NCBI GenBank assembly: GCA_016180435.1
Contig: JACPBG010000002.1
Coordinates: forward strand, 60,342 to 124,341
Length of the DNA stretch: 64,000 bases
Direction of reading: 5' to 3'
DNA from: Candidatus Sungiibacteriota bacterium
GTDB lineage: Bacteria > Patescibacteriota > Minisyncoccia > Sungbacterales > HO2-52-23
The position numbers and the translations under genes were made by a program. Positions within the stretch are counted from its first letter, which is position 1, and each line of letters opens with the position of its first letter. The notes beneath the pieces are model-generated. The model was not told the origin of the DNA, did not search any database, and worked only from the letters and a program-made list of their open reading frames with translations. Positions 10,953 through 29,671 of the stretch are shown here, in pieces.

Positions 10953-10954
10953 TT

Positions 10955-11075: not shown

Positions 11076-11106
11076 ATTATTTCCTCGCTTATTTTTTAAA
11101 AAATGT

Positions 11107-11223: not shown

Positions 11224-11242
11224 GGCTCTTACGAGCCAGCAT

Positions 11243-11696: not shown

Positions 11697-11780
11697 AATA
11701 AAGCACTTAGAACTTAGAACCTAGAACTTAGTAAATCTGCTAAGATCTAAGTTCTTGAATGCTAAGTTCTATGTTGCGAA
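11697..11780. repeat. Family A palindromic element, full-length unit including the terminal GAAG-loop hairpin atgttgcgaagcaacat abutting the rpsK start.
   Basis: aagcacttagaacttagaacctagaacttag...ctaagatctaagttcttgaatgctaagttctatgttgcgaagcaacat. Confidence 0.85.
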
Positions 11781-12230: not shown

Positions 12231-12322
12231 AGCACTTAGAACTTAGAACCTAGAACTTAGAATTTATAATTAAAGTATTTACTAAGTTCTAAATACTAAG
12301 ATCTAAGTTCTTTTGCGAAGCA
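12229..12322. repeat. Family A palindromic element, full-length, ending with the tttgcgaagcaaa hairpin just before the rpsD start.
   Basis: Same 5' sequence (aagcacttagaacttagaacctagaacttag) as the 11697 and 52465 copies. Confidence 0.85.
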
Positions 12323-12950: not shown

Positions 12951-13072
12951 GACAGTGATGCCAATCCGATGCGAATTTAATGCCAATTTGGCGAATTGCG
13001 AATGAATTTAAAGATTAGCAATTTGTAGATTAGCATTTTATTTGTAGATTTGCATCATTGCGTGCGAAGCAT
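12951..13072. repeat. Family D ~120-bp cassette (candidate promoter module) upstream of rpoA. Second copy at 29548..29670 upstream of frr.
   Basis: gtgatgccaatccgatgcgaatttaatgccaa...atttgtagattagcat...tttgtagatttgcatcattgcgtgcgaagca present twice in the window, each directly before a start codon. Confidence 0.75.
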
Positions 13073-13074
13073 AT

Positions 13075-14043
13075 ATGAGTATTCCACTTCCTTTAGCACC
13101 GAAGGCCGTTAGCGAAGAAGGAAATCGCGCTGTTTTTGATATAGAGGGGCTTTATCCGGGTTACGGCCATACCATCGGCAACAGTATGCGCCGCGTTTTA
13201 TTGTCATCTTTGCGTGGCGCGGCTATAACGTCCGTAAAAATAGAAGGCGTTTCCCACGAATTTTCTACTATAGAAGGAATTATGGAAGATGCGGTGGAGA
13301 TCATTCTAAACTTGAAACAGCTTCGTTTTCGCTTATATCAGGAAGAACCGGTCATGATCTCTCTTTCGGTTAAAGGCGAGCGGGAAGTAATCGGCAAGGA
13401 CTTTAAACTCCCGTCACAGGTGGAATTAATCAATCCGGATTTGCATATAGCGACTATTTCGTCCAAAAAATCCGGTTTGAGCATGGAGGCCACTGTGGAG
13501 GCGGGCATGGGTTACATTCCGGTGGAGGAGCGCACCAAGGAAAAAGTTGAAATAGGCGTGATCGCTTTAGATGCCGCATTTTCTCCGGTTCGCTATGTAA
13601 ATTATGATGTAGAGAATATGCGAGTCGGAGATCGCACCGATTATAATCGTCTGCGCCTTACCGTTGAGACTGATGGCTCGATTACTCCGCGTGAGGCATT
13701 TTTGCAGGCGGCCAGTATATTGGTTGAACAATTTTCCGTTCTAATCAAGGAAATGGAATCAAGTTCGGTAGAAATTGCACCTTCCGAAGAATATGCGCGG
13801 GGCGTATCCGAAGAGGCGGAAAAATCCGCCGGAGGCGAGGAGGATACATCCAAAATGAAGCTGGATGATCTGAAGTTATCCGGGCGCACCTTGAATATTC
13901 TGAAAGAATCCGGTATCAAGACCGTGGGAGGCCTTTCGCGTAAAAAAGAATCGGCGCTTCGGGAACTTGAAGGGATGGGGGATAAAGGGATGCAGGAAAT
14001 AAAGAAAGCGCTTGGAAATTTTGGAATTACTTTGAAGCCGTAA
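13075..14043 (+). CDS. rpoA: DNA-directed RNA polymerase alpha subunit.
   Basis: EGLYPGYGHTIGNSMRRVLLSSLRGAAITSVKIEGVSHEFSTIEGIMEDAVEIILNLK and a C-terminal alpha-CTD. Confidence 0.9.
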   Translation: MSIPLPLAPKAVSEEGNRAVFDIEGLYPGYGHTIGNSMRRVLLSSLRGAAITSVKIEGVSHEFSTIEGIMEDAVEIILNLKQLRFRLYQEEPVMISLSVKGEREVIGKDFKLPSQVELINPDLHIATISSKKSGLSMEATVEAGMGYIPVEERTKEKVEIGVIALDAAFSPVRYVNYDVENMRVGDRTDYNRLRLTVETDGSITPREAFLQAASILVEQFSVLIKEMESSSVEIAPSEEYARGVSEEAEKSAGGEEDTSKMKLDDLKLSGRTLNILKESGIKTVGGLSRKKESALRELEGMGDKGMQEIKKALGNFGITLKP

Positions 14044-14063
14044 TATTATAAATCTTCGGCTAA

Positions 14064-14182
14064 TTTGATTTCAGACACGACTCGGCGGCTCCGGCGGCCG
14101 CCTCGCTAAGGGTCGGACAAATTTTCGTCCCGATTGCGATCGGGACGATCCGAGCAAATTTGTCCTCCCATTGTCTGAAATC
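14064..14182. repeat. Family C MITE-like element, copy 2.
   Basis: About 95% identical to 10955..11075. Confidence 0.8.
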
Positions 14183-14250
14183 AAAATAGCCTCGATTTAA
14201 TCCAAGCTAATTACGAATTCTAAAATTTCCAACGCTAACGATGAAAAAAT

Positions 14251-14595
14251 ATGAGGAAGTTGAAAAAAGGGAGAAAATTTGGGAGAGAACGGGATCAAAG
14301 GAGGGCGTTACTTAAAAGTCTCGCCTCCTCATTTTTTATTGCGGGACGAATGAAAACAACGGAAGCCAAAGCCAAAGAACTCCGCCCGTATGTCGAGAAA
14401 TTCATTACCCGAGCCAAGGATCCGACACTCGCAAATCGAAGATTCATGCTGCGTTTTTTTTCGAGCGCAATTGTTGATAAAATTATTAAGCGTGGTGAGG
14501 AAATGCGTGAGAGAGCCGGAGGATATACCAGGGTTATTAAATTGGGACAGAGAAAACGAGATAGCGCGAGGATGGCGATATTGGAATTTGTTTAA
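14251..14595 (+). CDS. rplQ: Ribosomal protein L17.
   Basis: RKLKKGRKFGRERDQRRALLKSLASS...TTEAKAKELRPYVEKFITRAK. Confidence 0.85.
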   Translation: MRKLKKGRKFGRERDQRRALLKSLASSFFIAGRMKTTEAKAKELRPYVEKFITRAKDPTLANRRFMLRFFSSAIVDKIIKRGEEMRERAGGYTRVIKLGQRKRDSARMAILEFV

Positions 14596-14683
14596 AGAAC
14601 TTAGAACTTAGAACTTAGAACTTAGATATCTACTAAGTTTTAAATGCTAAGTTCTAAATGCTATGCGATGGAGCATCGCATTG
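14595..14683. repeat. Family A palindromic element overlapping the rplM 5' end.
   Basis: aaagaacttagaacttagaacttagatatctactaagttttaaatgctaagttctaaatgctatgcgatggagcatcgcat. Confidence 0.8.
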
Positions 14684-15009
14684 ATGCAGCTAATCAAATA
14701 CTCGGACGTCTGGCAACTCGCGTTGCGGTTCTTTTGCGCGGTAAAGATCGGCCTGATTTTGATCCGGCGCGTTTTTCCGATAACAAGGTGGCGGTTCATA
14801 ATACCGATAAAATGCGCGTGACCGGAAAGAAGATGCCGCAAAAAAAATATCGGCGGCATTCCGGTTACCCCGGCGGCTTGAAAGAAGAAGCGCTTGAGCG
14901 CCTTTTCGCACGCGACTCGCGTGAGGTTTTGCGCCGCGCGGTTTTAGGGATGCTCCCGAAAAATCGCCTGCGCAGTAGATGGATAAAGAATCTGATACTA
15001 CGTAAATAA
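14644..15009 (+). CDS. rplM: Ribosomal protein L13. The start is uncertain: it is either 14644, inside the repeat, or 14668.
   Basis: ...IDAANQILGRLATRVAVLLRGKDRPDFDP...KVAVHNTDKMRVTGKK aligns to L13. Confidence 0.85.
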   Translation: MLSSKCYAMEHRIDAANQILGRLATRVAVLLRGKDRPDFDPARFSDNKVAVHNTDKMRVTGKKMPQKKYRRHSGYPGGLKEEALERLFARDSREVLRRAVLGMLPKNRLRSRWIKNLILRK

Positions 15010-15027
15010 CAAATGGTAAATGGCAGA

Positions 15028-15062
15028 CAACTAACAACTAACAACTAACAACTAACAACTTA
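15028..15062. repeat. Heptamer microsatellite (ctaacaa) x ~4.5.
   Basis: caactaacaactaacaactaacaactaacaactta directly upstream of rpsI. Confidence 0.7.
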
Positions 15063-15066
15063 GGGT

Positions 15067-15666
15067 ATGCCAAAGGCAATTAAGAAAAAAATAGAAAGTA
15101 AGCCCGTGGAAAAAGAAGCGGAAACGCCGAAAAAGAAAGTTGAAGAAAAAGAAAATAAGATTAAAACCGCGGTGAAAGTAAAAAAACCTTCTAAACAGGG
15201 GGCAGAAGTTCCGGCACAAGAAATCTCGTCAGGATTCTCGGAACATAAAACGGATAAAGCAGAAAAGCCCAAAAAACCGGAGCGTTATTTTGAGGCGGTG
15301 GGCAGAAGAAAAACCGCAGTGGCTCGCGTGCGGTTATTTACCCGGCCCGGGGACTTTACGGTAAATGGCAGGTTATACAGTTTATATTTTCCGACTTTAA
15401 CGCTCCAGCAAATTATTGAGGATTCGTTGAAGAAAATGAAGCTTTTGGGAAGATTCAGGGTGTCAATTAAGGTCTCCGGCGGAGGAACTCATGCCCAAGC
15501 CGAGGCCATTCGCCACGGACTCGCGCGCTGTTTGGTTAAATTCAATCCGGATTTTCGCAAGCGTTTGCGACGTGCCGGATACATTACACGCGACCCACGC
15601 GCCAAAGAAAGGAAGAAATTCGGCTTGAAAAAGGCGCGTAAAGCTCCGCAGTGGGCGAAGCGGTAA
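15067..15666 (+). CDS. rpsI: Ribosomal protein S9 with a Lys/Glu-rich N-terminal extension.
   Basis: C-terminal RYFEAVGRRKTAVARVRLF...RRAGYITRDPRAKERKKFGLKKARKAPQWAKR. Confidence 0.9.
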   Translation: MPKAIKKKIESKPVEKEAETPKKKVEEKENKIKTAVKVKKPSKQGAEVPAQEISSGFSEHKTDKAEKPKKPERYFEAVGRRKTAVARVRLFTRPGDFTVNGRLYSLYFPTLTLQQIIEDSLKKMKLLGRFRVSIKVSGGGTHAQAEAIRHGLARCLVKFNPDFRKRLRRAGYITRDPRAKERKKFGLKKARKAPQWAKR

Positions 15667-15817
15667 TTGCGCTCCCCAGACACGCTGTCTGCATCAATGT
15701 TTATGAGGATTTTTGAAAAACACGGGTTCACGACAAAAGTATGAGAAGCGCACAAATAGCACCGCATACGCGGCGTCTTCAGGGATTTGAAAATAACTGA
15801 ATTTGAACAATAGCCGC

Positions 15818-15850
15818 GATGACCGCGGCTATTGTGTTATTATTACTTCT
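15818..15850 (+). terminator. Rho-independent terminator after rpsI (11-bp perfect stem caatagccgcg atga ccgcggctattg plus a T-rich tail).
   Basis: Read directly from the sequence. Confidence 0.65.
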
Positions 15851-15897
15851 ATGTTACTATTATTTCGGTTCATTTTCATAAATTATGGAGGAAGCAA

Positions 15898-16932
15898 ATG
15901 AGTGATAGGAAAGCACCGTATGACACCAATGAAGGAATTCAGCGTGCCGTCAAAACGTTGCATAAACTTAACGAGTTGGTGGCGAATCGCCATAGGGCTG
16001 GGTATGAAAGACATGAACGACTCAAGGAATTCTATGTCCTTGGACGGTGGCGTACTGACTCTTGTGGCAATTTTGGAAAGATCATCTCTGAGTTTATCCC
16101 GAAATTAAAGTTCCCCCAGATCCCCGACGTTTTAACCAACGAAGAGTTTTGGGCATTCTTGGGGGCGCAAGGGCTTGATGTTGAGAAAACCTTTGTTTCA
16201 AGCGGAATGTCGAACGACCTACCGCCTGATGACATCGTATGTTGTGTTTGCCAGCAGTCGTGGACTATTGAAAATTGCCATGACGTAGTTATCACCCATC
16301 AGCATCAGGATTTTTCATTGTCAGAGTTCGTTGGGAGACAGCTTTGGGAGGTACAACGGGTATACGGTATGCGAATTGATGCTTGCTACCGTATGCAGCC
16401 AGACATTCTTATTCGTAACGATCGATTCATTGATCTACGTCCGGAGCCAGAATTTGAAACGCTCAAAAGGAATGAGCATGGATGGGTGGGCAAAGAAGAT
16501 GGAGTTACGGAAAACTATGTGATTCAGTCAGGTGATGATGGGTTTTTCAACGTCTGGCATTTTCATCATCATGCGTGTAGTCGGAAAAAGCTCGAAGCTG
16601 ATATGCGGCAGCAATTCCGTGATGTACTCACAAAAGCGGGTTTTGCTAACACAATCCTCAAGTCAATTCCGAATCAGTATTGCCCATGTGAGCATTGTGC
16701 TCCGTGGTTCGTGGTACGGACTGAACATGGTACATTTACGATCGGATGGCGAAAGCGCGTCATCAATATCGATTGGAAGGCGACTGGTAAGAACTTTCTG
16801 CCGCTTTTCGACGATCAGGACGTTACGAAAGACAACCACTTGATTCATGCATGGGGTTACGAAAAAGCTACTGAATATTTTACGAGGATTAAGGGGTTTC
16901 TCATTCAGTCCGAGGCGTTAACTCAACGTTAA
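15898..16932 (+). CDS. Hypothetical Cys/His-rich protein, first gene of a putative accessory island.
   Basis: GGAGGAAGCAA Shine-Dalgarno then ATG. Motifs CCVCQQSW, HQHQ, WHFHHHAC, CPCEHC. Codon usage differs from the neighbours. No recognisable family. Confidence 0.5.
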   Translation: MSDRKAPYDTNEGIQRAVKTLHKLNELVANRHRAGYERHERLKEFYVLGRWRTDSCGNFGKIISEFIPKLKFPQIPDVLTNEEFWAFLGAQGLDVEKTFVSSGMSNDLPPDDIVCCVCQQSWTIENCHDVVITHQHQDFSLSEFVGRQLWEVQRVYGMRIDACYRMQPDILIRNDRFIDLRPEPEFETLKRNEHGWVGKEDGVTENYVIQSGDDGFFNVWHFHHHACSRKKLEADMRQQFRDVLTKAGFANTILKSIPNQYCPCEHCAPWFVVRTEHGTFTIGWRKRVINIDWKATGKNFLPLFDDQDVTKDNHLIHAWGYEKATEYFTRIKGFLIQSEALTQR

Positions 16933-17039
16933 ACAAGACTGCCTGGCTCTGCCAGCAGTTTTTATTTTCAAAAACCTAAAGTCCACCACGCCTCAAAGCA
17001 TTGCAGTGGGCGAAGAGATAGACTAGCTTTCGTATGTTG

Positions 17040-17080
17040 ACCCCAAAGACCGAACTAAAAAGTTTGGTCTTTTGGGTGAG
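17040..17080 (+). terminator. Hairpin (aagaccgaac taaaaa gtttggtctt) plus T-rich tail downstream of the 15898..16932 gene.
   Basis: Seen in the sequence. One G·U pair in the stem. Confidence 0.5.
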
Positions 17081-17136
17081 GGGTAGGCGGGGAAGACCGA
17101 AATATTCTTGAGTCTTGGGTGGGGAAAAGCCCCTAC

Positions 17137-17192
17137 TTGACAAATTACCGGGATTCCCGGTAAGATTAATTTAATATCTAATTCCCGGTATT
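17137..17192 (+). promoter_or_regulatory. TTGACA -35 box with a palindromic operator taccggga/ttcccggta in the spacer. A second ttcccggta half-site overlaps the Shine-Dalgarno/start region of the GHKL gene.
   Basis: ttgacaaattaccgggattcccggtaagattaatttaatatctaattcccggtatttATG. Confidence 0.5.
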
Positions 17193-17193
17193 T

Positions 17194-18156
17194 ATGAAAA
17201 TATATCTTCCCCATAGTGCATTTTTAGGGAATATTGATCCATTCCTGGCGGCCTTTGACCCTAGCCATAAGGAAAAGCTCGAAATTACCGCTAATAAAAA
17301 TTGGATTTTTGTTCACCCCGTTGTATTAGCAATGGTAGCGGCGTTAGGTTTAACAGTTTATCGAAAAAATATTAAATGTGAAAAGATAGTGGCACGTTCG
17401 GGTCACTACCTTGAAAGGATGGGTTTATTCAAATTTCTTGATATTAAATCAGGGATGAAGATAACCGAACACGATCCATCGGGGCGATTCGTTCCACTAA
17501 CACAGATAAAAACCTCTGAACAACTCACAAAGTTTCTAACCGAAATGATTCCACTGCTTCATTTAGAACCTCGACATGCCGAACCAATCAAATATATTAT
17601 TAGTGAATTGGTGAGAAACGTGTTAGAGCACGCTCGTGCACCACAAGGAGCTATCGTATCTGCTCAATATCATGCAAAAAATAAAACAATTCGCATAGGA
17701 ATAGTTGATCGTGGTAGTGGTATAAAAAGCACAATTAATCAATCATGGGATGCAAGTAATGATCTTGAGGCTATTAAGTTGGCACTTATGCCGGGAGTTA
17801 CAGGAACTACAAAAAGAGAAGGCGGAACAGAACAAAATGCTGGAGCAGGTTTATTTTTTATTAAATCAATTGCTTATGTGAATCGTAATTTTTTTATGAT
17901 CTATAGCGGAAACGCAATGTATAAACTTCTGAAAAGAAGTGGCGCTAAAAAAATTATGCTTCATGCTAACCCCAATCTTGACAGACACTCAGAAAGAAAT
18001 AACTTACCTTATTGGGATGGTACGGCGGTGGGTGTAGATATTTCTTTAGATACTACACAAGAATTTACTGCACTTCTTGATCTTATAAGAGATACTTACT
18101 CGGAGGCAGTTAAAGAGCGTAAGCGTAATAGATATAAAAGGGCTAAATTTATTTAA
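17194..18156 (+). CDS. GHKL-superfamily ATPase (histidine-kinase-like / anti-sigma Ser-kinase-like ATP-binding protein) with a ~110-aa N-terminal extension.
   Basis: N-box ELVRNVLEHA, G1 box VDRGSGI, G2 box GGTEQNAGAGLFFIKSIA. About 36% GC against a ~45% host background. Confidence 0.65.
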   Translation: MKIYLPHSAFLGNIDPFLAAFDPSHKEKLEITANKNWIFVHPVVLAMVAALGLTVYRKNIKCEKIVARSGHYLERMGLFKFLDIKSGMKITEHDPSGRFVPLTQIKTSEQLTKFLTEMIPLLHLEPRHAEPIKYIISELVRNVLEHARAPQGAIVSAQYHAKNKTIRIGIVDRGSGIKSTINQSWDASNDLEAIKLALMPGVTGTTKREGGTEQNAGAGLFFIKSIAYVNRNFFMIYSGNAMYKLLKRSGAKKIMLHANPNLDRHSERNNLPYWDGTAVGVDISLDTTQEFTALLDLIRDTYSEAVKERKRNRYKRAKFI

Positions 18157-18161
18157 ATATT

Positions 18162-18449
18162 ATGGTTACTATCGAACTTTTTCCCTTAGTGGGGGGCTTT
18201 GCGGAAAACAAGGATATTGCAAGAGACATAAGACGAGACCAAATTCTTCCAGCTCTGAAGAATGGAGAAAGTGTTGTCTTGGATTTTAGTGGCATAGAAT
18301 CTACAACACAATCTTTCGTTCACTCCTTAATTAGTGATGTAATGAGGGAATACGGGAGTGACGTTATGGATAAATTAGTATTTAAAAATTGCAGTGAAAC
18401 CATACAAAAAATCATCAGTATAGTTGTGGACTATATGCAGCAAACATAA
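18162..18449 (+). CDS. STAS-like domain protein (DUF4325-like), a putative partner of the upstream GHKL ATPase.
   Basis: 95 aa with a ...VVLDFSGIESTTQSFVHSLISDV... pattern typical of DUF4325 / anti-anti-sigma-like proteins. The 6-nt gap to 17194..18156 suggests an operon. Confidence 0.55.
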   Translation: MVTIELFPLVGGFAENKDIARDIRRDQILPALKNGESVVLDFSGIESTTQSFVHSLISDVMREYGSDVMDKLVFKNCSETIQKIISIVVDYMQQT

Positions 18450-18499
18450 TTTGTCTCAGTTAAAGACGTATTACGGTTCGCCCTGCGGAATTTTTTATA

Positions 18500-18545
18500 C
18501 GGACTTTTTATTTTCTCGCGTAAATTTTATTTGAAAAAACGCGAA
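18500..18545. terminator. Bidirectional terminator-like inverted repeat (ttttattttctcgcgt ... acgcgaaaataaaa) between convergent genes.
   Basis: Seen in the sequence. Confidence 0.5.
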
Positions 18546-18590
18546 AATAAAATGTCATCCGAAAGGATGACGTTTCTATATAGATACGCC

Positions 18591-19148
18591 CTAATGATAT
18601 GGAGAAAATGTCGCCTCTTTTAATCGCCAGTGTAATTTTATTCCCGCTTGATCTTCCGCAAAAATATCTTTCACGAAGTTGTCGAAACGAGCCGAGAATG
18701 GATACTTTTGCAAAGTAAGGTCGGCCAGAAGATGCAGCTTGTCTATCGGAAAGCGCTTCAGGCAAAATACATATGCCTCGGCAATGTCTGATCTTGAGCA
18801 TCCCTCGTCCCTTTCCCGCGGCCAGATACGATGCAGTACTGAAATCATCTTCAGTTTAAATTCGGAGTTTCCGAACCGCAAAAGAAAAAGAAGGAGCTGG
18901 CGGATTGTTCCTGCAAAAAAGATTTCCCAGCTCCTGCTTTTTCGTGCGGCTGAACCTTGTTTATAAAGACCCAATTTCCACCATAGTTCGGCGGGTCTGC
19001 TGTCCGGCATTTTCAGCACTTTCCATTGATATAACATCCAGTCAAGAACGCCGGGAACTGCAACCTCTTTTTGATAGCAGATTTTTTCTAAATCATGAAG
19101 CGCCAGTGGATACTTCTTTTTAAAAGTAGCACTTGTATGCCAAGGCAT
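18591..19148 (-). CDS. Hypothetical protein.
   Basis: 185-aa ORF convergent with the GHKL/STAS operon. No recognisable motif. Confidence 0.4.
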   Translation of the reverse strand: MPWHTSATFKKKYPLALHDLEKICYQKEVAVPGVLDWMLYQWKVLKMPDSRPAELWWKLGLYKQGSAARKSRSWEIFFAGTIRQLLLFLLRFGNSEFKLKMISVLHRIWPRERDEGCSRSDIAEAYVFCLKRFPIDKLHLLADLTLQKYPFSARFDNFVKDIFAEDQAGIKLHWRLKEATFSPYH

Positions 19149-19205
19149 TTATTTATCTCCTATAGCTGGTATGAGCTTCACACAAGATAACAAAAAAACG
19201 TTATT

Positions 19206-19514
19206 TTGTCAATCTTGCAAAATAGTACAGATTATGCTATTTTAGTTTTAGTTCATTTTTCGCGTAGGTGCAATATGTCTAGTTGGCTGGATACGGAAAA
19301 AGGTCAAGAATTTTTCAAAAAAGCCTTTGAGGTTGCCGATTTGCCGGAGGTTGATGGAGATGTCTTGGAGCAAGGCACATACACCAACCGTCAAATCGCC
19401 GAAAAAGCCGGAAGCCCAGAAAAATTGCTGTCATTGCTTATGAATGTATCCGGTGATCGGGCGACGAAAAGATCGATCCTTAGTTTCGCCGTGGAAATGG
19501 ATTTAGAAGATTAA
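19206..19514 (+). CDS. Hypothetical small acidic protein (start possibly 19275).
   Basis: ORF only. Confidence 0.3.
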   Translation: MSILQNSTDYAILVLVHFSRRCNMSSWLDTEKGQEFFKKAFEVADLPEVDGDVLEQGTYTNRQIAEKAGSPEKLLSLLMNVSGDRATKRSILSFAVEMDLED

Positions 19515-19554
19515 GTTTAGTAAGTTTTACCGCATGGTTTGCCCTGCGGCTTTT

Positions 19555-21375: not shown

Positions 21376-22460
21376 AATTTGTTTCTTCTTAAATATATGG
21401 ACCTTGGATAATCGGCGGCAGTCACCAGTTCATCAATTCTTTCACTGATCAGCTCGCCGGTATTTCTTCCTCCGCGTCCGTCAATCTCGGTAAAATATAC
21501 TCCGTCTTTGGTGAGCATGACAATATGAGCGTCGTCGTAATAATACCAGCGCGCATCCAGAATCGGTTCCTGCAGGGTTATAATCTGTTCTATTAGGCCC
21601 TTTTTTTGAAACGGCTGGTATTCATTATCCTGCAGCCATAATATTTCTATACTGTTTTCTTTTTTTAAGATAAGTTTTTCTCCTTCCGTATCAAATGAAA
21701 TTGCTTTAGCGCCTCCGGCCAGGGGTTTCAATTCATTGGTTTCACTTTCTATTATAAAAAGTCCTCCGCCGGCATCCAAAATCGCCAATTCGCTGCGCGG
21801 CGATATGAAAAATTGCGCCGGTATTTTGTCAGAAAGGAAAAATCCCGGTCGGCCCAGCGTTTCAATCATCCCGTTACTATTTAATTTTGCCGCAAAACCG
21901 GCTTCGGTAATAAAAAATATAGCGCCGTCGATATAGGCAAATGAATTCACTCCGGGTGTCAGCACGGTTGTCGTGGCGCGGCCGTTTAGCACGCGGTCTT
22001 CAACCAGATTGTTTTTTTTATCAAGCCGAATTTTACGCGCGGAAGTGGTAGTCGCCAATCCCAAAGATATGATTTCGTCGCGTGTTGCCGTGGCGGTCAT
22101 GACCGGTGAGGGGATCAGGATGACATTTCGTATTTCGGTTACGGCGGCTTTTTCCACGGTTACGGTTTTTGACCAAGGCCGGTAATTTTCCTTTTCCAGA
22201 CGTAGCAGATGTATGCCGGGCCTGATTTCGGTCAATAGCGCCCCGCCGGAAAAAATTGATGTCTCTTTCTGAAATTCGTTGTCCAGAAAAATTGAGATGC
22301 TTGCGATCGTGGATTTTATAAAAATACCGCCGCGCTGCTCCAGCGAGCGTGATGATAAATTGATCGTATAGCCGAGCGAATGAGCAATTACTATCGGCAA
22401 AAGCACGATAAATGCGGCCAGCAGGAGATAAAAAATTTTTTTTCTGGTTGCCAGCTTCAT
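21354..22460 (-). CDS. Membrane-anchored hypothetical protein with a PEGA-like segment.
   Basis: N-terminal TM helix. ENYRPWSKTVTVEKAAVTEIRNVIL resembles a PEGA domain. Confidence 0.45.
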   Translation of the reverse strand: MKLATRKKIFYLLLAAFIVLLPIVIAHSLGYTINLSSRSLEQRGGIFIKSTIASISIFLDNEFQKETSIFSGGALLTEIRPGIHLLRLEKENYRPWSKTVTVEKAAVTEIRNVILIPSPVMTATATRDEIISLGLATTTSARKIRLDKKNNLVEDRVLNGRATTTVLTPGVNSFAYIDGAIFFITEAGFAAKLNSNGMIETLGRPGFFLSDKIPAQFFISPRSELAILDAGGGLFIIESETNELKPLAGGAKAISFDTEGEKLILKKENSIEILWLQDNEYQPFQKKGLIEQIITLQEPILDARWYYYDDAHIVMLTKDGVYFTEIDGRGGRNTGELISERIDELVTAADYPRSIYLRRNKLWKKIEL

Positions 22461-22517
22461 ACTTATATTGTAGCAATTTTGCGGGCGTTTGAAAATAACG
22501 CCTTTTCACGCTACGAT

Positions 22518-23831
22518 ATGTTTATGTCTGTAGATAAATTTATTATTAAGGGCGGTAAGCCGTTGGCGGGTGAGATTGAGGTACGCGGATCCAAAAATGC
22601 CGCGACCAAATTGATGATTGCCTCACTTCTTACGGATGAGCCCTGTGTTATTGAAAATGTCCCGCTGTCGCAGGATACGGATATTACTTCAGAACTTTGC
22701 GGGAAAATCGGAAGCAATGTGGAGCTTGATCGTGATTTACATGCGATTAAAATCCATACGCCGAAGGTCTTGCATCCGGTTGTGCCGGAATTATCGCGGA
22801 AAAATCGCATACCCGTACTGGCTATCGGGCCGCTTTTGCATCGTACGGGCATTGCGGAAGTACCGGTGCTGGGCGGGTGCCCGATCGGGCACCGTCCCAT
22901 AAATTTTCACGTCGAGGCATTGTCTAAAATGGGGGTAGAGGTTGAGCGCCGGCCGCAATCATATTTTGCCAAGACCTCGGAGATCCATGGAGCTGAAATA
23001 GACCTTCCGTTCCCGTCTGTCGGCGCTACCGAAAATATAATCTTATTTGCGGTACTTGCCCGCGGGAAAACATTGATCCGGAATGCGGCCGTGGAGCCGG
23101 AAATTTTCAATCTGGTTGAGATGCTTCGCGGGATGGGAGCTGAAATTCTTTGGAGATCTGACGAGAGGATCATAGAAATAGAGGGAGTAAGCCGGCTCCG
23201 CGGAGTTTCGATAGAAACAATTCCGGATAGGAATGAGGCGGTATCATTTGCCGTGGCCGCCCTGGCAACCGGCGGAGAGGTTTTTGTGCGCGGGGCGCGC
23301 GAGGATCATCTGAAATCATTTATTGCTAAAGCGGTTGATGCGGGGGGATCGGTCTTTGTGCAGGATGGCGGCATTAAGTTTAAAGCCGGTAAGCGGTATG
23401 GGCCGGTTAAAATTGAAACCTCGCCACACCCGGGATTTATGACTGATTGGCAGCAGCCGTTTTGCGTTCTCTTGACGAAGGCGGACGGAGAATCAATAAT
23501 ACATGAGACGGTTTATGAGGATAGATTTGGTTATGTAAAGGATTTGACCCGCATGGGGGCGCGGATTGAGGTATCGGATAAATGTTGGGGTGATATGAAA
23601 TGCCGGTTTGCGGGCGTCTCCGCCATGCATAGTATCAGTATTAACGGGCCATCCCGTCTTCATGGGACAGATATTACCATGATTGATATCCGCGCCGGCA
23701 TGGCGCATATCATTGCCGCGCTTTCCGCTGAAGGAGAGTCGGTTATTACGGGGATTGAACACATTGATAGGGGATATGAGAAGATTGAGGAGAGGTTAAG
23801 AAAATTAGGGGCGGAAATTAGGAGGGTGTGA
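22518..23831 (+). CDS. murA: UDP-N-acetylglucosamine 1-carboxyvinyltransferase.
   Basis: MSVDKFIIKGGKPLAGEIEVRGSKNAATKLMIASLLTDEPCVIENVPLSQD aligns to the MurA N-terminus. Confidence 0.85.
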   Translation: MFMSVDKFIIKGGKPLAGEIEVRGSKNAATKLMIASLLTDEPCVIENVPLSQDTDITSELCGKIGSNVELDRDLHAIKIHTPKVLHPVVPELSRKNRIPVLAIGPLLHRTGIAEVPVLGGCPIGHRPINFHVEALSKMGVEVERRPQSYFAKTSEIHGAEIDLPFPSVGATENIILFAVLARGKTLIRNAAVEPEIFNLVEMLRGMGAEILWRSDERIIEIEGVSRLRGVSIETIPDRNEAVSFAVAALATGGEVFVRGAREDHLKSFIAKAVDAGGSVFVQDGGIKFKAGKRYGPVKIETSPHPGFMTDWQQPFCVLLTKADGESIIHETVYEDRFGYVKDLTRMGARIEVSDKCWGDMKCRFAGVSAMHSISINGPSRLHGTDITMIDIRAGMAHIIAALSAEGESVITGIEHIDRGYEKIEERLRKLGAEIRRV

Positions 23832-23849
23832 TTATCGCTCGGCATTTCG

Positions 23850-23957
23850 TTTTCAAGACACGCAAATTTTTGCCAGCGCAAAAATTTGCTAAGGGTCGGC
23901 GAAGTTTTCCGCCAAAGGCGGAACCATGCAAACTTCGCCTCCCATTGTCTTGAAAAC
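23850..23957. repeat. Family C MITE-like element, diverged copy 3, with compensatory changes in the internal stem.
   Basis: TIRs ttttcaagacac / cattgtcttgaaaa. The ctaagggtcgg core is conserved. ggcgaagttt/aaacttcgcc replaces ggacaaattt/aaatttgtcc. Confidence 0.65.
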
Positions 23958-24014
23958 AAAATGCTTCGCATAATTTCAATCTTTTGGTGAGAGGAGAGGA
24001 AAAGGAGCAATTTT

Positions 24015-25025
24015 ATGTTTATTAGAAAAATAGGAATTGATCTTGGCACTGCCAACACCTTGGTGTTTGTGCCCAAAAAAGGGGTGGTGGTGAATGAGCC
24101 ATCCGTGGTTGCGGTTTCCAAATACGAGAACGCGGTTTTGGCCGTGGGAAATGAAGCGCGGGATATGATCGGCAGAACACCCGAAACCATTGTGGCGTAC
24201 CGTCCTTTGCGGGATGGAGTTATTGCGGATTATCGCGTGACCGAGGCCATGTTGCGCTATTTTATTTCCAAAGCCAGCGGCCGGGTTCGGCTTTTTCGTC
24301 CGGAAGTAATGGTTTCGGTGCCGGCCGGAGTCACATCCACCGAGCGTCGGGCCGTGATTGAAGCTACGGTGCAGGCCGGGGCCAAGGCCGCTTATGTGGT
24401 AAAAGAGCCGGTGTTGGCCGCCATCGGCGCCGGAATCCCTATTAATGAGCCGGCCGGACATATGGTGGTGGATATTGGCGGAGGCACATCGGATGTGGCG
24501 GTTATTTCACTTGGCGGAATAGTGGCATCCACTTCGGTAAAAGTTGCCGGAAACAAATTGGATCAGGCCATTGCCGATTATATCAAGCGCCATTATAATC
24601 TTGCGATCGGCGACCGGACTGCGGAAAATATGAAAATAAAAATTGGGTCAGCCGTGCCTATGGATGATCCAAAAATGAAAATGGAAATCAAGGGGCGCGA
24701 TTTGATGTCCGGTTTGCCGCGCACCATAGAGATCCATTCTATGGAAGTTACCGAGGCGATTTCGGATGAGTTGGATGAGATAATCCATGCGGTAAAATCC
24801 GTTTTGCATGATACTCCGCCCGAACTCGCGGCAGATATAATGGACCGGGGAATTGTAATGACCGGAGGCGGATCGCTTCTGCGAAATATTGACGAGCTGG
24901 TATTTCAGGAAACCGGCGTGCCGGCGCATGTGGCGGATGAGGCGCTTTTATGCGTGGCCAAGGGCACCGGAATCGCTTTGGAGCATTTGGATGTTTATAA
25001 ACGCAGTATCATGTCTAAGCGGTAA
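24015..25025 (+). CDS. mreB: Rod shape-determining protein MreB (copy 1).
   Basis: IGIDLGTANTLVFVPKKGVVVNEPSVVAV...DIGGGTSDVAVISLGGIV. Confidence 0.9.
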   Translation: MFIRKIGIDLGTANTLVFVPKKGVVVNEPSVVAVSKYENAVLAVGNEARDMIGRTPETIVAYRPLRDGVIADYRVTEAMLRYFISKASGRVRLFRPEVMVSVPAGVTSTERRAVIEATVQAGAKAAYVVKEPVLAAIGAGIPINEPAGHMVVDIGGGTSDVAVISLGGIVASTSVKVAGNKLDQAIADYIKRHYNLAIGDRTAENMKIKIGSAVPMDDPKMKMEIKGRDLMSGLPRTIEIHSMEVTEAISDELDEIIHAVKSVLHDTPPELAADIMDRGIVMTGGGSLLRNIDELVFQETGVPAHVADEALLCVAKGTGIALEHLDVYKRSIMSKR

Positions 25026-25124
25026 AGCGCGGCTCCCTTGGTATATTACAGAAAAAAGACGCTCGCAGGGTGTTAAATCTTTAAATTCTTAAATTTTAGC
25101 GATCCCATTACTTACTGTTATAAA

Positions 25125-25160
25125 AAATAGTTCCCGAGTTAAGTTAAGGGACTACCCTTG
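25125..25160. repeat. Family H short repeat (aaaatagttcccgag...agggactacc).
   Basis: Second copy at 31085..31130. Confidence 0.5.
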
Positions 25161-25161
25161 A

Positions 25162-25812
25162 ATGATAATAAAAAAATTTTTACATTCCTGTATTTTACTT
25201 GAGGAACAAGGGCGAAGACTCCTTATTGACCCCGGTGATATGTCGTTTTTCGAGAAGAAAATATCACCCGAAGATATCGGTGGGGCGGATGTTATAGTTT
25301 TTACTCATAGGCATAGTGACCATTTAGATCTAGACATATTAAAAAAATTTTTAAGTTTGAAACAAGCTAAAATTTTGGCTCATGAAGAAATTGGTAAAAA
25401 ACTAAAGGAGTCGGATATTCCATACACATCGATATCTGCGGGTGAGACGAAAATAGTTGAAGGATTTACTATCGAAACAATTGAGGCGCCGCATGGACAT
25501 GGTTTAAGTGTGCCCTCGCCGTATAATCTCGGCTTTAAAATAGACAATGCATTTTTTCATCCCGGCGACTGTGTCTCGTTAGAAAACATTGAAACTAAAG
25601 TTTTGGCACTTCCCGTTATGGGTTCTTGGATGCGTTTTCCGGAGGCAGTATTATTTGCTAAACGAGTAAAGCCACAGTATGTAATTCCTATTCATGATGC
25701 ACTTATTGGGGACGTATTCATTGATAGGGTTTACGACTATTATCGAGGGCCATTAGAAAAAGACGGCATTTCCTTTTATCAGCTTGGATTAGATAATTCG
25801 CTTGAGATATAA
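25162..25812 (+). CDS. MBL-fold metallo-hydrolase.
   Basis: FTHRHSDHLD (HxHxDH) motif. Confidence 0.7.
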   Translation: MIIKKFLHSCILLEEQGRRLLIDPGDMSFFEKKISPEDIGGADVIVFTHRHSDHLDLDILKKFLSLKQAKILAHEEIGKKLKESDIPYTSISAGETKIVEGFTIETIEAPHGHGLSVPSPYNLGFKIDNAFFHPGDCVSLENIETKVLALPVMGSWMRFPEAVLFAKRVKPQYVIPIHDALIGDVFIDRVYDYYRGPLEKDGISFYQLGLDNSLEI

Positions 25813-25909
25813 CCCCATGTCGCTAACATTAAATTGAATACTTGGAGAAAAGAATGGTTTGCTGAAGACAGCCGTCTTCGGTGGGTAGTATTAAAATATT
25901 TTAAATTTT

Positions 25910-26302
25910 ATGTCGCGTGAAGGATTACAACCAATTGTTCCGGAATCCAATCCGGCGGTTAAGAAATTAAGCCCGCATGAGATAAGTGCGCAAAAAGTGC
26001 GTAAAGAATTTAATGAGAACGTGCAAGATGTTTTACCGCTGGTTAAACGTGCGCACTCTTTGAAAGAGCTTTGGCAAGCAGTTGATACCATAGAAAAATG
26101 GAGGAGTGACGTAGATCTTGCCAAAGATCAGGGCCAAGATATACCAGATCCGCGCGAGGACGAACAAGTAATGAAAGAATATTTGCTTCGATATACGTCA
26201 GGACCGCATCGGGATATTTCTCCGATTTTTAAAGAAGGAAGAAATATATTAAAAGACGAAGTCGCGAAAAAAATTAAAGAACTGGGATTATCTGAGAAAT
26301 AG
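25910..26302 (+). CDS. Hypothetical protein.
   Basis: ORF only. Confidence 0.35.
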   Translation: MSREGLQPIVPESNPAVKKLSPHEISAQKVRKEFNENVQDVLPLVKRAHSLKELWQAVDTIEKWRSDVDLAKDQGQDIPDPREDEQVMKEYLLRYTSGPHRDISPIFKEGRNILKDEVAKKIKELGLSEK

Positions 26303-26322
26303 TCAAAGAATTCCTCAATTTT

Positions 26323-26703
26323 ATGTCTGGAGGAAATCCATTTAAAGGATTAAAACTTAAACCAGCGCAGGAGAAAGAAGAAGTTAAAGAACAACCGGCT
26401 CCGGCGCCGCGGATTATCACCAAGCCAAAAAAATATTTGGAATCCGTGGGCATTACTGATTATACCTACGAAGAAAAAGCGGACGGAGTGCATTTTTATA
26501 TTAAGTTGTCCCCGGAAGACATGGAGGAAAAAATAAAACAAGCTCGATATGTTATTAATGCGCCGCCGTTAACTCCATTTCAAAGAGAAAAGTTGTTGCC
26601 ATTTGTAAAATTGATGAAACAGGATAGGAAGCTTGATTGTAAAGTTTTAGACGGAAATGCGTCCCGTCCCAATTTATTGGAGGTAGTTGTCTTTAAAAAG
26701 TAA
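26323..26703 (+). CDS. Hypothetical protein.
   Basis: ORF only. Confidence 0.35.
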   Translation: MSGGNPFKGLKLKPAQEKEEVKEQPAPAPRIITKPKKYLESVGITDYTYEEKADGVHFYIKLSPEDMEEKIKQARYVINAPPLTPFQREKLLPFVKLMKQDRKLDCKVLDGNASRPNLLEVVVFKK

Positions 26704-26760
26704 ACCACCCGACTGGATGTCGGGCGGCGATATGATGGGAAAGGATGGCGGGTTTTGTGA

Positions 26761-27186
26761 TCACGAGGCGGTGATATTTAGAAAAAATCCGTCGGGATGA
26801 TGCGTGATAGAAAGACCCGGGCCAGTGGTGCGAAGGAAAAGGTTTCCTTCAAGATCGGGATTCTCGGCAAACGTTTTACGCGTTTTCCGTTCAAGCACTG
26901 GCAACCTGCATAGGTCTGGAATATCCAGGCCGGTAGCGCCATCTATCACGCTTAGATAGAAATCCGCACCATCCCTTTCTATCCGTATGTTCGCATCTCC
27001 ATCGGTAAAAATAGTGACTGCGTCTATACCTATTGTAGGAGAGAGCACGCGATGGAGTGATGTTGCGACCGCATCCGTTCCTCCCATCAAAACCAGTTGT
27101 CCGTCCTCGTCCTTAAACTGGGATAATATAGCCCTGAGATTTGTGAGATCCATATGTAAAAGTCCTCCTCTGACTAAGATACCCAA
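26761..27186 (-). CDS. Hypothetical protein, paralog of 31390..31875.
   Basis: Shares ...LVLMGGTDAV...DGDANIRIERDGADFYLSVIDGATG with DGDADITIIRRDDELFYVTVDNKEDG in the other copy. Confidence 0.45.
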   Translation of the reverse strand: MGILVRGGLLHMDLTNLRAILSQFKDEDGQLVLMGGTDAVATSLHRVLSPTIGIDAVTIFTDGDANIRIERDGADFYLSVIDGATGLDIPDLCRLPVLERKTRKTFAENPDLEGNLFLRTTGPGLSITHHPDGFFLNITAS

Positions 27187-27215
27187 ATTATACTATAATA
27201 GTATTTAAAAGTCAA

Positions 27216-28199
27216 GTGATTATCGGGCACGAACGGCAAATTGAATATCTGGAAAAAATCATAAGACGCGGGCGCATGTCCCACGCCTATTTATTTTTTG
27301 GTCCGGAACATGTAGGAAAATTCGCATTAGCCAAGGAAATTGCGCGTGTTTTAATGTGCCCGAATAAGAATAAGATCGGCGATGCCGGAGACGGATGCGC
27401 GGATTGCCGTCAAATTGAACAGGATATTCATCCCGGCGTAATAATTCTTGATATTGAACACACTCTTGTCTCCAAGAAAGAAATTCGTAAAGACATTCCG
27501 ATTGAAGATATACGGGAACTGAAACGCCGATTTTCTTTTGCTCCGGAGCAAGGAAAGTGGCGGATCGCTATAATTAATGAAGCGGAGAAATTAAGTGCCG
27601 AGGCCGCCAATGCGTTTTTGAAATTATTGGAAGAGCCGGGAGCGCGGACTCTTTTTTTGCTGGTAAGTTCGACGTATGATTCGGTTTTGCCGACCATTGT
27701 TTCGCGCGCCGAGCCGCTTAGATTTTCTTTGGTGTCAGATGCGATTTTGCGTGAATTTTTAGAACAAAAAAAGATAAGTCAAGATCAACGGGAATCTATT
27801 TTGAAACTTGCGGCCGGGCGCTCCGGGATTGCCATAAGATCCGTCGAGGATCCGTCTTATTTCATAAAACAGAAAAAAATACGGGATGAAATTGAATCAA
27901 TCCTCTCGTGCAAAGATATTCCGTCGGCTCTGGCCCTTACCGAGCGGGTTGCCAAAGACAAGGAGATGTTGAAAACCGCGGCTGATTTTTTGATCCGTTC
28001 ATTGCGCGATAACATCATCGCAACCATTCTGGAGTCCAAGACGTATCATACCAAAGTGGGACGGCTTAAAGAGATCCACCGCATTCTTTCCATAATAGAG
28101 TCCACCAACGTCAATCCGCGTCTGGCTATGGATGTGATGTTGATGGAGGCGTTAACCACTAACAGCACGAACAGCTTTGTCTATGGGTTTAGGTTGTAG
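27216..28199 (+). CDS. holB: DNA polymerase III delta' subunit.
   Basis: AAA+ motif HAYLFFGPEHVGKFALAKEIARVLMC, followed by a box-like segment LFLLVSSTYDSVLPTIVSR. Confidence 0.75.
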   Translation: MIIGHERQIEYLEKIIRRGRMSHAYLFFGPEHVGKFALAKEIARVLMCPNKNKIGDAGDGCADCRQIEQDIHPGVIILDIEHTLVSKKEIRKDIPIEDIRELKRRFSFAPEQGKWRIAIINEAEKLSAEAANAFLKLLEEPGARTLFLLVSSTYDSVLPTIVSRAEPLRFSLVSDAILREFLEQKKISQDQRESILKLAAGRSGIAIRSVEDPSYFIKQKKIRDEIESILSCKDIPSALALTERVAKDKEMLKTAADFLIRSLRDNIIATILESKTYHTKVGRLKEIHRILSIIESTNVNPRLAMDVMLMEALTTNSTNSFVYGFRL

Positions 28200-28292
28200 A
28201 TGCCGGTATGGCGGGAGGGTTTTAGGCATAAGGCCCTAAAACTAATACCCTAAAACCGGACCGGCTTCTAAAACATACACCTCATAACAGTT

Positions 28293-29543
28293 TTGTTGGT
28301 GTTGTTTGCGAAATTGAGAATTTTACTTGCTATTTTAGTTGTTATACTTGTAATTGTCGTTGTCTTCCCGTTTGTTTTGAATATGGCAGGTTTATCTGCG
28401 CCGCAGTTTGCTTTCGTAGGAGATGCGGCAAGCGAACGCGCCGGTGAAGCCGGCATATGGCGTTCGGAAAACGGCGGCATATCCTGGAAAGAAATAAGAT
28501 TTCAAACCGGAGGCAACCCATTGCCGTTATCCATCCATGATTTGACGTTCCATCCCCATTATCGCGATACAGTATTGATGGGAACGCGGGGAAATGGACT
28601 TTGGAAAAGCGATAATAACGGCATGTCATGGAAAAGAATCAATGACCGCGCGGGTATTTTGCAAAATAATGCGGATATTTACGGGGCGGCAGTAAGTCCG
28701 GCAAGCCCCGCGGTTTGGTATGTGGCTGCATATCAAAACGGCCGCGGGGAAGTATTGAAGAGTTTGGACGGCGGATCAAGTTTTGCAAAGATATATCATT
28801 TAAACGGGGGCGGAATTCCGATTGTCGGCCTATTCGCATATGCCGATAATTCTGAGCGGGTTCTTATTGCTACGGCCAATGGCGGTTTTTTGCAGACAAG
28901 CGACGGAGGCGCAAGTTGGGGATCCGTTTCATGGAGTTCCGGAAATATTACAGCCATACGCGTGAACCCGGCAAACCCGGACGAAATAATTATTTGGATA
29001 GCCGGAGGTAAAATAATGCGCTCGCAAGATGGCGGCCTGACTTGGCGTAGTGTTAATTCACCGGACCGGGGCGAAACTTCCGGGATGTTTTCGTATAATG
29101 GTCCGCGCGTGGGACAAGAATCCGCCGGTTTGAGTACTGATTCCTTGCCGCCGGATAATTCATCCAAGCCGGGTTTTCAATTTGATCTTGGAGCGATTTT
29201 TTCACCCTTGAATAAGGGATCCGATGATTTTATAATAAGTCCATCGGATAGGAGAGCGCGTTATTTAAAATCCGGAAGTAATATTTATCGTTCGGGAGAC
29301 GGCGGCGGCTCATGGAATCCGGTCCACACCTCGCTTTCTCCGCGTACGCGTTTGGATGCGGTTGCCGTTGATCCGTTCAATGCTGATAATGTTTTTTTTA
29401 CAGCGTCCGGGGAATTTCATAAGAGTACGGATGGCGGCGCTACGTGGGAAATGCGCGATTTGCCGCCCAATATGAAGGGAAGAATTAGAATATTACGGAT
29501 AAGTACGCATAATCCAGAGATAATGTTTGCGGTGACACAATAA
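28293..29543 (+). CDS. Secreted or membrane-anchored protein with BNR/Ycf48-like (sialidase-type) repeats.
   Basis: N-terminal TM helix. Repeated S/DxDxGxSW motifs (SENGGISWKEI, SDNNGMSWKRI, SLDGGSSF, TSDGGASW, SQDGGLTW, SGDGGGSW, STDGGATW). Confidence 0.65.
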   Translation: MLVLFAKLRILLAILVVILVIVVVFPFVLNMAGLSAPQFAFVGDAASERAGEAGIWRSENGGISWKEIRFQTGGNPLPLSIHDLTFHPHYRDTVLMGTRGNGLWKSDNNGMSWKRINDRAGILQNNADIYGAAVSPASPAVWYVAAYQNGRGEVLKSLDGGSSFAKIYHLNGGGIPIVGLFAYADNSERVLIATANGGFLQTSDGGASWGSVSWSSGNITAIRVNPANPDEIIIWIAGGKIMRSQDGGLTWRSVNSPDRGETSGMFSYNGPRVGQESAGLSTDSLPPDNSSKPGFQFDLGAIFSPLNKGSDDFIISPSDRRARYLKSGSNIYRSGDGGGSWNPVHTSLSPRTRLDAVAVDPFNADNVFFTASGEFHKSTDGGATWEMRDLPPNMKGRIRILRISTHNPEIMFAVTQ

Positions 29544-29547
29544 AAGC

Positions 29548-29670
29548 AGTGATGCCAATCCTATGCGAATTTAATGCCAAGCTGGCGAATTGCGAATAAT
29601 TATTAGCATAATTAGCAATTTGTAGATTAGCATAAGATTTGTAGATTTGCATCATTGCGGTGCGAAGCAC
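29548..29670. repeat. Family D cassette, copy 2 (upstream of frr).
   Basis: See 12951..13072. Confidence 0.75.
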
Positions 29671-29671
29671 A

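Follow-up and report, generated by a model that had tools for sequence, protein, structure and literature searches.

Two cassettes upstream of rpoA and frr in a Sungbacteria genome are copies of a dispersed palindromic intergenic element found across the candidate phyla radiation and tied to gene starts

Two similar cassettes in a 64,000-nucleotide (nt) stretch of Candidatus Sungiibacteriota contig JACPBG010000002.1 (the window, to which all unqualified coordinates refer), one directly upstream of rpoA and the other directly upstream of frr, are two copies of an intergenic palindrome, a dispersed element that belongs to a family spread across the candidate phyla radiation (CPR; Patescibacteria) and is tied to gene starts. 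An initial annotation had named the pair family D and described them as about 85%-identical copies that end at the start codons of rpoA and frr, and this description is correct. Copy 1 (12951-13074, + strand) fills the spacer between rpsD (12324-12944, stop codon 12942-12944) and rpoA (13075-14043, ATG at 13075), and copy 2 (29546-29671, + strand) fills the spacer upstream of frr (29672-30214, ATG at 29672), such that the span 12951-29670 runs from the first copy through to the second and the 3' end of each copy meets the ATG of its gene. A global alignment of the copies has 112 of 129 columns identical (86.8%), as against about 50% for the flanking 120 nt on either side (53% and 48%). A profile built from the 3' arms of elements in other CPR genomes has two matches in the 64-kb window, and these are the two copies (E = 8.9e-12 for copy 1 and 2.5e-13 for copy 2); there is no third copy in the window, even with mismatches or by profile. 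rpsD, rpoA and frr are NCBIfam equivalog assignments, and NCBIfam likewise confirmed rpsM, rpsK, rplQ and trxB at the coordinates that the initial annotation implied. A protein identical to the RpoA of the window is encoded in a Candidatus Sungbacteria metagenome-assembled genome.

Each copy contains a direct repeat of the form ATTTGTAGATT(A/T)GCAT, present twice with a 19-nt period and followed by a small stem containing GCGAAGC. The repeats, which the initial annotation had also recognised, lie at 13021-13036 and 13040-13055 in copy 1 and at 29618-29633 and 29637-29652 in copy 2, all on the + strand. The distal 16-nt word of copy 1 (13021-13036, +; ATTTGTAGATTAGCAT), which is conserved across CPR loci, includes a -35-like TTGTAG at 13023-13028; the proximal word, ATTTGTAGATTTGCAT followed by CA (13040-13057, +), includes a -10-like TAGATT at 13045-13050 and is followed by a conserved A at 13057. 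The two words of copy 2 span 29618-29654 (+); its TTGTAG occupies 29620-29625 and its TAGATT 29642-29647, and the conserved A is position 29654. TTGTAG and TAGATT are 16 nt apart in the family D copies.

Two features had been overlooked in the initial annotation, namely the CPR-wide distribution, to which we return below, and a long hairpin. Each family D copy is a single long imperfect inverted repeat of about 105 nt, followed by the small stem. The predicted hairpin of copy 1 (12953-13060, +) has a folding energy of -41.5 kcal/mol (z = -4.63) and that of copy 2 (29546-29658, +) one of -46.8 kcal/mol (z = -4.62), and in neither case was any of 200 shuffled sequences as stable; the reverse strand of copy 1 folds less stably (-26.4 kcal/mol). 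The 5' arm of copy 1 (12953-13003) contains the words ATGCCAAT, ATGCGAAT and GCGAAT, which complement the words of the 3' arm (approximately 13014 to 13060), with wobble tolerated. The stem begins 8 nt past the rpsD stop codon in copy 1, and in copy 2 it begins 2 nt past the stop codon (29541-29543) of the preceding, BNR/glycosyl-hydrolase-like gene. Sliding-window folding energies could not tell intergenic hairpins from coding sequence. We set aside an intrinsic terminator, the stem being A+T-rich and not followed by a T run, and the terminator scan lists none at 12951-13074 or 29546-29671. No Rfam family matches the window at gathering thresholds, relaxed thresholds return microRNA-like hairpin noise (E >= 0.027), and there is no tRNA or tmRNA in the window.

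The small stem is predicted at 13062-13072 in copy 1 (+; GTGCGAAGCAT, with a GAA loop), 2 nt upstream of the rpoA ATG, and at 29660-29670 in copy 2 (+; GTGCGAAGCAC), 1 nt upstream of the frr ATG. The sequence TGCGAAGCA occurs four times on the + strand of the window, at 11775, 12314, 13063 and 29661, in each case directly upstream of a start codon (those of rpsK, rpsD, rpoA and frr, respectively), whereas by our estimate about 0.25 occurrences per strand are expected by chance. The initial annotation had suggested that such stems may be ribosome-loading, processing or regulatory hairpins. A ribosome-loading role found no support, since the GCGAAGC stem is weak as RNA and missing from most family members: its energy is about -3.7 kcal/mol in the centroid structure of copy 2, and the 41-nt windows around the two stems (-3.8 and -5.2 kcal/mol) fold no better than shuffled sequences. 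There is no Shine-Dalgarno sequence upstream of rpoA or frr.

Our search for relatives of the element used one genome per species (185,579 species genomes, 596 Gb) and the pattern GTAGATTWGCAT-N3-9-TTGTAGATT. This double word was found at 80 or more loci, with 87 matches in the 80 listed, where we estimate that about four matches, or up to about 20 in A+T-rich DNA, are expected by chance. Roughly 76 of the 80 listed loci come from about 45 CPR-type assemblies of more than ten named candidate lineages; lineages with the double word are Saccharibacteria, Uhrbacteria, Falkowbacteria, Staskawiczbacteria, Kaiserbacteria, Yanofskybacteria, Portnoybacteria, Roizmanbacteria, Nealsonbacteria, Moranbacteria, Sungbacteria and Paceibacterota. 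A few assemblies labelled Gammaproteobacteria or Bdellovibrionales carry the same element, and four listed hits, in a cyanobacterium, two Clostridia-type genomes and one unlabelled bin, look like chance matches. Some genomes have 7-14 loci among those listed, and every genome has a subfamily of its own. Six further contexts emerged when metagenomes were scanned with the 5' arm of family D; dnaJ, an ftsQ-like gene, atpA and atpE are among the downstream genes. The element is thus a dispersed repeat, as the word "portable" in the initial annotation had implied. We rejected a phage origin: the double word has one match in viral contigs, which lies within a gene, and none of the 80 single-word viral hits listed (of 118) has family context.

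Assemblies of short reads are affected by the element. Logan short-read contigs with exactly this rpoA or frr stop inside it (the ends of L001-L006, and L007 1-60). We do not regard L007 as a variant of the frr copy from another strain and left it out of the comparisons; the frr copy is joined there to a 5' half of the Uhrbacteria subfamily, and the contig is probably a k-mer chimera formed through a 33-mer that the two organisms share. In metagenomes this 33-mer is the probable cause of broken assemblies and of chimeras between organisms.

Placement relative to genes is regular throughout the family. Reading from an upstream stop codon to a downstream start codon, an element begins after 2-11 nt with a 5' arm of inverted words, continues with a variable loop, and closes with a 3' arm in which a 16-nt word (ATTTGTAGATTnGCAT) occurs twice in direct orientation with a 19-nt period; the start codon follows after about 5 nt, or after about 17 nt when a GCGAAGC mini-stem intervenes, as it does in the window copies. 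In most tandem cases the upstream stop codon is 1-16 nt from the hairpin, such that the whole stop-to-start spacer is filled. Measured to the first start codon of an open reading frame of 60 codons or more, the distance from TTGTAGATT is most often 12 nt, which is a sharp mode (10-14 nt in 21 of the 87 matches), with a second class at 21-25 nt that has a mini-stem resembling GCGAAGC and to which the window copies belong (24 nt). The proposed linkage to gene starts is therefore borne out across unrelated genes and lineages. Genes downstream of the element are diverse housekeeping genes: secE, the genes for S4, S8, S13, S17 and L29, rnpA, ftsE, an RNase H gene and atpE were identified by family scan, and dnaB, serS, groEL and dnaJ by N-terminal sequence. 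Forty-three of the 87 matches point at a co-directional downstream gene and 24 are antisense to both neighbours; in most of the latter, however, the proximal word TTYGTARATTnGYAT is still present on the arm adjoining the downstream ATG. Copies consisting of a 3' arm only lie upstream of genes, and full copies are also found in divergent spacers. The proximal word is thus oriented towards the downstream ATG at a consistent distance, which is the position expected of a promoter.

Conservation of the arms extends beyond the search pattern. An A precedes the proximal word in 96% of cases, the G and T of the GCAT that follows the word are conserved in 96% and 98%, and the seventh base past TAGATT is an A in 65%. 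Pairing between the arms is maintained as well. In an arms-only alignment of 28 elements, set on the hairpin register, which favours pairing, 85% of cells pair, compared with 27-46% when the partner is slid. Two-sided changes, such as GCAT/ATGC, GAGT/ACTC and GTAT/ATAC, number 17, compared with 5.3 +/- 1.8 in shuffled alignments, and none of 500 shuffles reached 17. Wobble-type mismatches outnumber A-C-type mismatches by 32 to 7 in favour of the strand that carries the words. We did not accept this as proof of an mRNA structure: the bias tracks the word strand regardless of gene orientation, and the hairpins of close relatives (see below) are more stable on the antisense strand, so the wobble pairs are weak evidence only. 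Inverted arms are separated by anything from about 10 to more than 60 nt, and inserts, including a second repeat, can be present in the loops.

A word conserved over 16 bases at a fixed distance from start codons suggests a portable promoter of an undescribed kind. We tentatively favour the reading that the element is a dispersed palindrome whose gene-proximal arm is a promoter for a short-leader mRNA and whose hairpin ends or insulates transcripts arriving from upstream. TTGTAG would act as the -35 element and TAGATT, after a 16-nt spacer, as the -10 element, and the conserved A that follows TAGATT by 7 nt (13057 and 29654) would be the transcription start. The resulting mRNAs would have very short leaders without a Shine-Dalgarno sequence, of 6 nt in most lineages and 18 nt here. 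Read-through RNA from the upstream gene would include the complementary 5' arm and could fold into the long stem-loop, which may end, insulate or stabilise the upstream transcript. Copies would spread or be homogenised within genomes, and the unit may thereby act as a portable boundary between transcription units. Start-proximal promoters appear to be normal in these genomes: across all ATG starts in the listed loci a generic TAnnnT box peaks at 6 nt, TARATT peaks at 12 and 31 nt, and the Shine-Dalgarno signal is weak. Moreover, frr plausibly needs a promoter of its own because the gene preceding it is unrelated. We consider doubtful, though worth stating, a broader form of this proposal, in which the element would be a modular, previously undescribed transcription-unit boundary shared by many CPR bacteria: the hairpin would terminate or insulate the upstream gene, the 16-nt word would start a near-leaderless mRNA lacking a Shine-Dalgarno sequence and would be read by a CPR-specific feature of RNA polymerase or by a dedicated factor, and copying from spacer to spacer would make promoters mobile.

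Several observations weigh against a promoter. The two boxes that the initial annotation had pointed to are present and 16 nt apart, but TTGTAG-16-TAGATT agrees with the sigma-70 consensus at 7 of 12 positions (T-12, A-11 and T-7 are present) and was not called by our consensus scan, which had a threshold of 9 of 12, and canonical TTGACA-17-TATAAT promoters are found elsewhere in the same window. It is the full 16-nt word that is conserved, twice and in both orientations, rather than the hexamers alone, and contacts with RNA polymerase alone would not demand this. The distance from TAGATT to the ATG is 12 nt, where leaderless genes of these genomes typically have 6 nt. Many copies are inside operons that do not need a promoter (rpsD-rpoA, atpB-atpE and atpH-atpA), and at one locus (L027) the element is closely preceded by a terminator-like stem and a canonical promoter (TTGACA-17-TAAAGT). 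The hairpins that close relatives have between rpsD and rpoA lack a TAnnnT or other -10-like box. Lastly, copies within a genome are about 95% alike, loops included (judged by eye in Uhrbacteria loci), and Sungbacteria and Uhrbacteria share an identical stretch of 33 nt; both facts fit a repeat that is mobile or homogenised better than they fit selection on a promoter.

Canonical sigma-70 promoters of the window lie at 40740-40788, 38385-38404, 31400-31460 (- strand) and 32690-32741. Some are of the leaderless type (TTGACC-17-TATTAT-6-ATG at 40786 and TATAAT-6-ATG at 38402), and others are followed by a leader with an AGGAGG Shine-Dalgarno sequence; the organism appears to mix leaderless genes with Shine-Dalgarno-led ones.

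Alternatively, the element could be a selfish or neutral non-autonomous repeat, similar to the doublets of repetitive extragenic palindromes (REPs) known as REPINs or to miniature inverted-repeat transposable elements (MITEs), which is mobilised by an enzyme that recognises its hairpin or ends, or is gene-converted, and which is tolerated in short spacers. We judge this somewhat unlikely. The closeness of stop and start codons to the stem would then reflect insertion into the 10-20-nt spacers of a compact genome, and the words would be recognition sites of the mobilising protein. The high identity of copies within a genome and the subfamily peculiar to each genome agree with this, as do the near-identical 33-mers in distant CPR lineages, the assembly breaks within the element, the presence of other hairpin families in the orthologous spacer of relatives, the nesting of a second repeat (TTCTCGACAGGCTCGAA...) in the loops of several copies, and an upstream stop codon as near to the stem as the start codon is. 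The architecture, an inverted repeat with subterminal repeated words, is in keeping with it too, and the element shares with MITEs terminal inverted repeats, small size and many dispersed copies, yet we saw by eye no target-site duplication flanking the two window copies or five Uhrbacteria copies. The element resembles REPINs and bacterial interspersed mosaic elements (BIMEs) of Proteobacteria in consisting of extragenic palindromic units paired in inverted orientation into imperfect hairpins of about 100 nt, in being made of inverted short repeats, in filling spacers, and in numbering tens of copies per genome. REPINs and BIMEs act as mRNA 3' stabilisers or terminators. REPs, however, are lineage-specific and tied to an IS200/IS605-like transposase gene, that of the REP-associated tyrosine transposase (RAYT), whereas the family D core word is common to CPR lineages; REPINs are also not known to have a fixed spacing to start codons. 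Against a selfish repeat stand the sharp 12-nt mode across genomes and genes, a stop side that is looser (1-16 nt), and an ATG-adjoining arm that keeps the TARATT word even where the other arm is the better copy. We also saw no copy plainly within a gene and no transposase adjoining a copy among the neighbouring genes examined, and the 80 viral-contig hits considered above include no family member.

Two other readings take the element as functional in a different way. An intercistronic RNA element, which we regard as unlikely, would use the hairpin, formed in the polycistronic transcript, to place the stop codon of one gene and the start codon of the next on opposite sides of the stem base. 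A terminating ribosome might then melt the base and free an AUG that lacks a Shine-Dalgarno sequence, giving translational coupling, or RNase III might cut the stem, which would stabilise the 3' end of the upstream mRNA and leave the downstream mRNA with a short leader. The geometry is favourable, in that most tandem copies have a stop codon 1-16 nt away on the 5' side of the stem base, and the start codon lies about 5 nt from the 3' side; co-directional genes, which often encode subunits of one complex, flank 67 of the 87 matches; neither rpoA nor frr has a Shine-Dalgarno sequence; and the rpsD-rpoA hairpin of relatives is similar in size and geometry with a different sequence. Structure alone, however, would not keep a 16-nt sequence across CPR lineages, and copies with only a 3' arm, or that follow divergent genes, cannot function in this way. 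The excess of wobble pairs would otherwise support an RNA structure, but it follows the word strand rather than the gene strand, and the antisense strand of the relatives' hairpins is the more stable one. Quite unlikely, in our view, is an operator array for a DNA-binding protein conserved in CPR bacteria, either a global regulator or a nucleoid protein, that would bind four 16-nt words (two direct and two inverted) over the start region of a growth-related regulon. Such a protein would account for conservation of the whole word in both orientations and for its fixed position relative to the start codon, and the downstream genes function in replication, translation, division and protein folding by chaperones. 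On the other hand, an inverted-arm spacing of about 10 to more than 60 nt, with inserts in the loop, would be unusual for a cooperative operator, and the loop identity within genomes is left unexplained.

Returning to the reading of a mobile promoter with an insulating hairpin, known systems provide partial precedents. Correia elements of Neisseria (also called NEMIS or CREE) are likewise small, palindromic and dispersed, with inverted ends. Their ends can supply outward promoters and their transcripts are cut by RNase III, and of the known systems they thereby come closest in function to a portable promoter joined to a hairpin. Nonetheless, their sequence is unrelated, they are confined to one genus, and their TA target duplication and integration host factor (IHF) site were not seen in family D. 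Leaderless and short-leader sigma-70 promoters of Actinobacteria and Deinococcus resemble the gene-proximal arm in having TAnnnT near the start and no Shine-Dalgarno sequence, and the loci examined here have the same peak at 6 nt; the family D box differs in lying 12 nt from the ATG within a duplicated and inverted 16-nt word, with 7 of 12 consensus positions. The Bacteroidetes-type promoter, with the consensus -33 TTTG and -7 TAnnTTTG, would fit copies with the proximal word TAGATTTG, which have TTTG 19 nt upstream, but the variable base is T in only 62% of copies.

Other classes were set aside. Integron attC sites, which have R''/L''...L'/R' boxes with a GTTRRRY core and lie 3' of a promoter-less cassette gene, do not fit, since on reading the element ends we saw no such core, and the flanking genes are core housekeeping genes. 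CRISPR and TIGR arrays have repeats alternating with unique spacers, near cas or tas genes; TIGR units also contain box C/D motifs (PMC12045711). Family D elements, by contrast, are single dispersed hairpins without spacers between housekeeping genes, which sets them apart from TIGR and CRISPR arrays alike. Compared by eye, neither the consensus sequences of sigma-54 promoters, CIRCE (the controlling inverted repeat of chaperone expression), LexA boxes and IHF sites nor the Cas12a repeat, which shares TTGTAGAT, fit in spacing or context. We found no prior description of the element in the full-text literature, searched with the sequence words included, nor did literature searches turn up a promoter consensus, a leader structure or a family of intergenic repeats described for CPR bacteria. 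A paper on bacterial core promoters that covers one CPR species reports no such motif in the passages searched.

Stop-to-start hairpins are not unique to family D. In fetched contigs that encode an RpoA 81-91% identical to that of the window, the spacer between rpsD and rpoA measures 81-92 nt and likewise consists of short words in an inverted array, which are unrelated to those of family D (ACGAACAG/CTGTTCGC, AGCGTAT/... and GCAGACA/TGTCCGC). Each relative has words peculiar to it that recur in several spacers of that operon, and the window does the same with family A, (AGAACTT)n/(AAGTTCT)n. We conclude that a stop-to-start hairpin is a habit of the clade, with family D as one occupant of such a site. 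The inverted AGAACTT/AAGTTCT heptamer arrays of family A form stop-to-start hairpins in at least nine spacers (116-188, 760-822, 11237-11305, 11701-11770, 12230-12311, 14596-14662, 52466-52534, 54711-54755 and 58768-58804), and the orthologous spacers of four relatives (L008, L009, L013 and L014) have hairpins of ACGAACAG, AGCGTAT and GCAGACA. Family A and the relatives' rpsD-rpoA hairpins recall the short tandemly repeated repetitive (STRR) heptamers of heterocystous cyanobacteria, which are intergenic arrays of words of about 7 nt. To our knowledge, STRR arrays are not organised as single stop-to-start hairpins, and the words of family D differ from them in being 16 nt long, with a 19-nt period, and conserved across CPR lineages.

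The window contains further repeats. A strongly folding element of about 135 nt is present at 10946-11083 and 14058-14191 (93% identical) and in part at 23880-23967, with terminal inverted repeats of 20-22 nt (...TTTCAGACA / TGTCTGAAA...) and a conserved core, CTAAGGGTCGGnCAAA...TTTGTCCTCCCATTGTCT, that contains CCUCC. Relatives have it in different ribosomal-operon spacers (L009 2088-2245, L014 1754-1950, and after rpoA in L008). It matches no Rfam family, and may represent a mobile element or else a structured RNA not described so far. A palindromic, G+C-rich repeat (GGCCGCCCCGCAGAGCGGGGCGAGCCTCGCCCC...) occurs at 507-558 and 54570-54621 (92% identical), with a related piece at 52575-52615; adjoining the trxB copy is an out-of-frame duplicate of about 27 nt of the 5' coding end of trxB (52554-52580, corresponding to 52625-52651), which suggests an insertion that duplicated the gene start. 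The TTCTCGACAGGCTCGAA repeat, which is conserved and has TTCGAG/CTCGAA stems, stands alone in the window at 47243-47425 and 63670-63742, and is nested in family D-type loops of related metagenome contigs (L095, L096, L100 and L101; also L042 1060-1150). About five tandem copies of the heptamer AACTAAC, with no inverted partner, lie at 15029-15062, just upstream of a gene at 15067. Word-array hairpins are found at 35880-36030 and 37539-37604, one of which pairs (AAATTCG)n with (TTTAGAA)n to give several TAGAAT boxes. The other is a palindrome of CGAAT words, of which ATTCGCGAAT and GATTAGCG recall family D, and it ends 7 nt upstream of an ATG at 37612. Adjacent paralogous genes at 38635-40593 and 41377-43101 share stretches that are 60-78% identical (repeat families D4, D10 and D18).

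Much of bacterial diversity belongs to CPR bacteria, few of which have been cultivated. It is unusual in bacteria for a noncoding word to be conserved over many named lineages, as this one is in the CPR, and to be fixed in position relative to start codons. The element probably accounts for one cause of assembly breaks and chimeric joins in metagenomes. It might be of use in calling gene starts, or as a source of expression parts for the few tractable Saccharibacteria. If it is selfish, it would be a repeat family shared by CPR bacteria, with a bearing on gene flow among these organisms. The conserved word would also offer a directly testable handle on how transcripts start and are kept separate in the reduced genomes of CPR bacteria.

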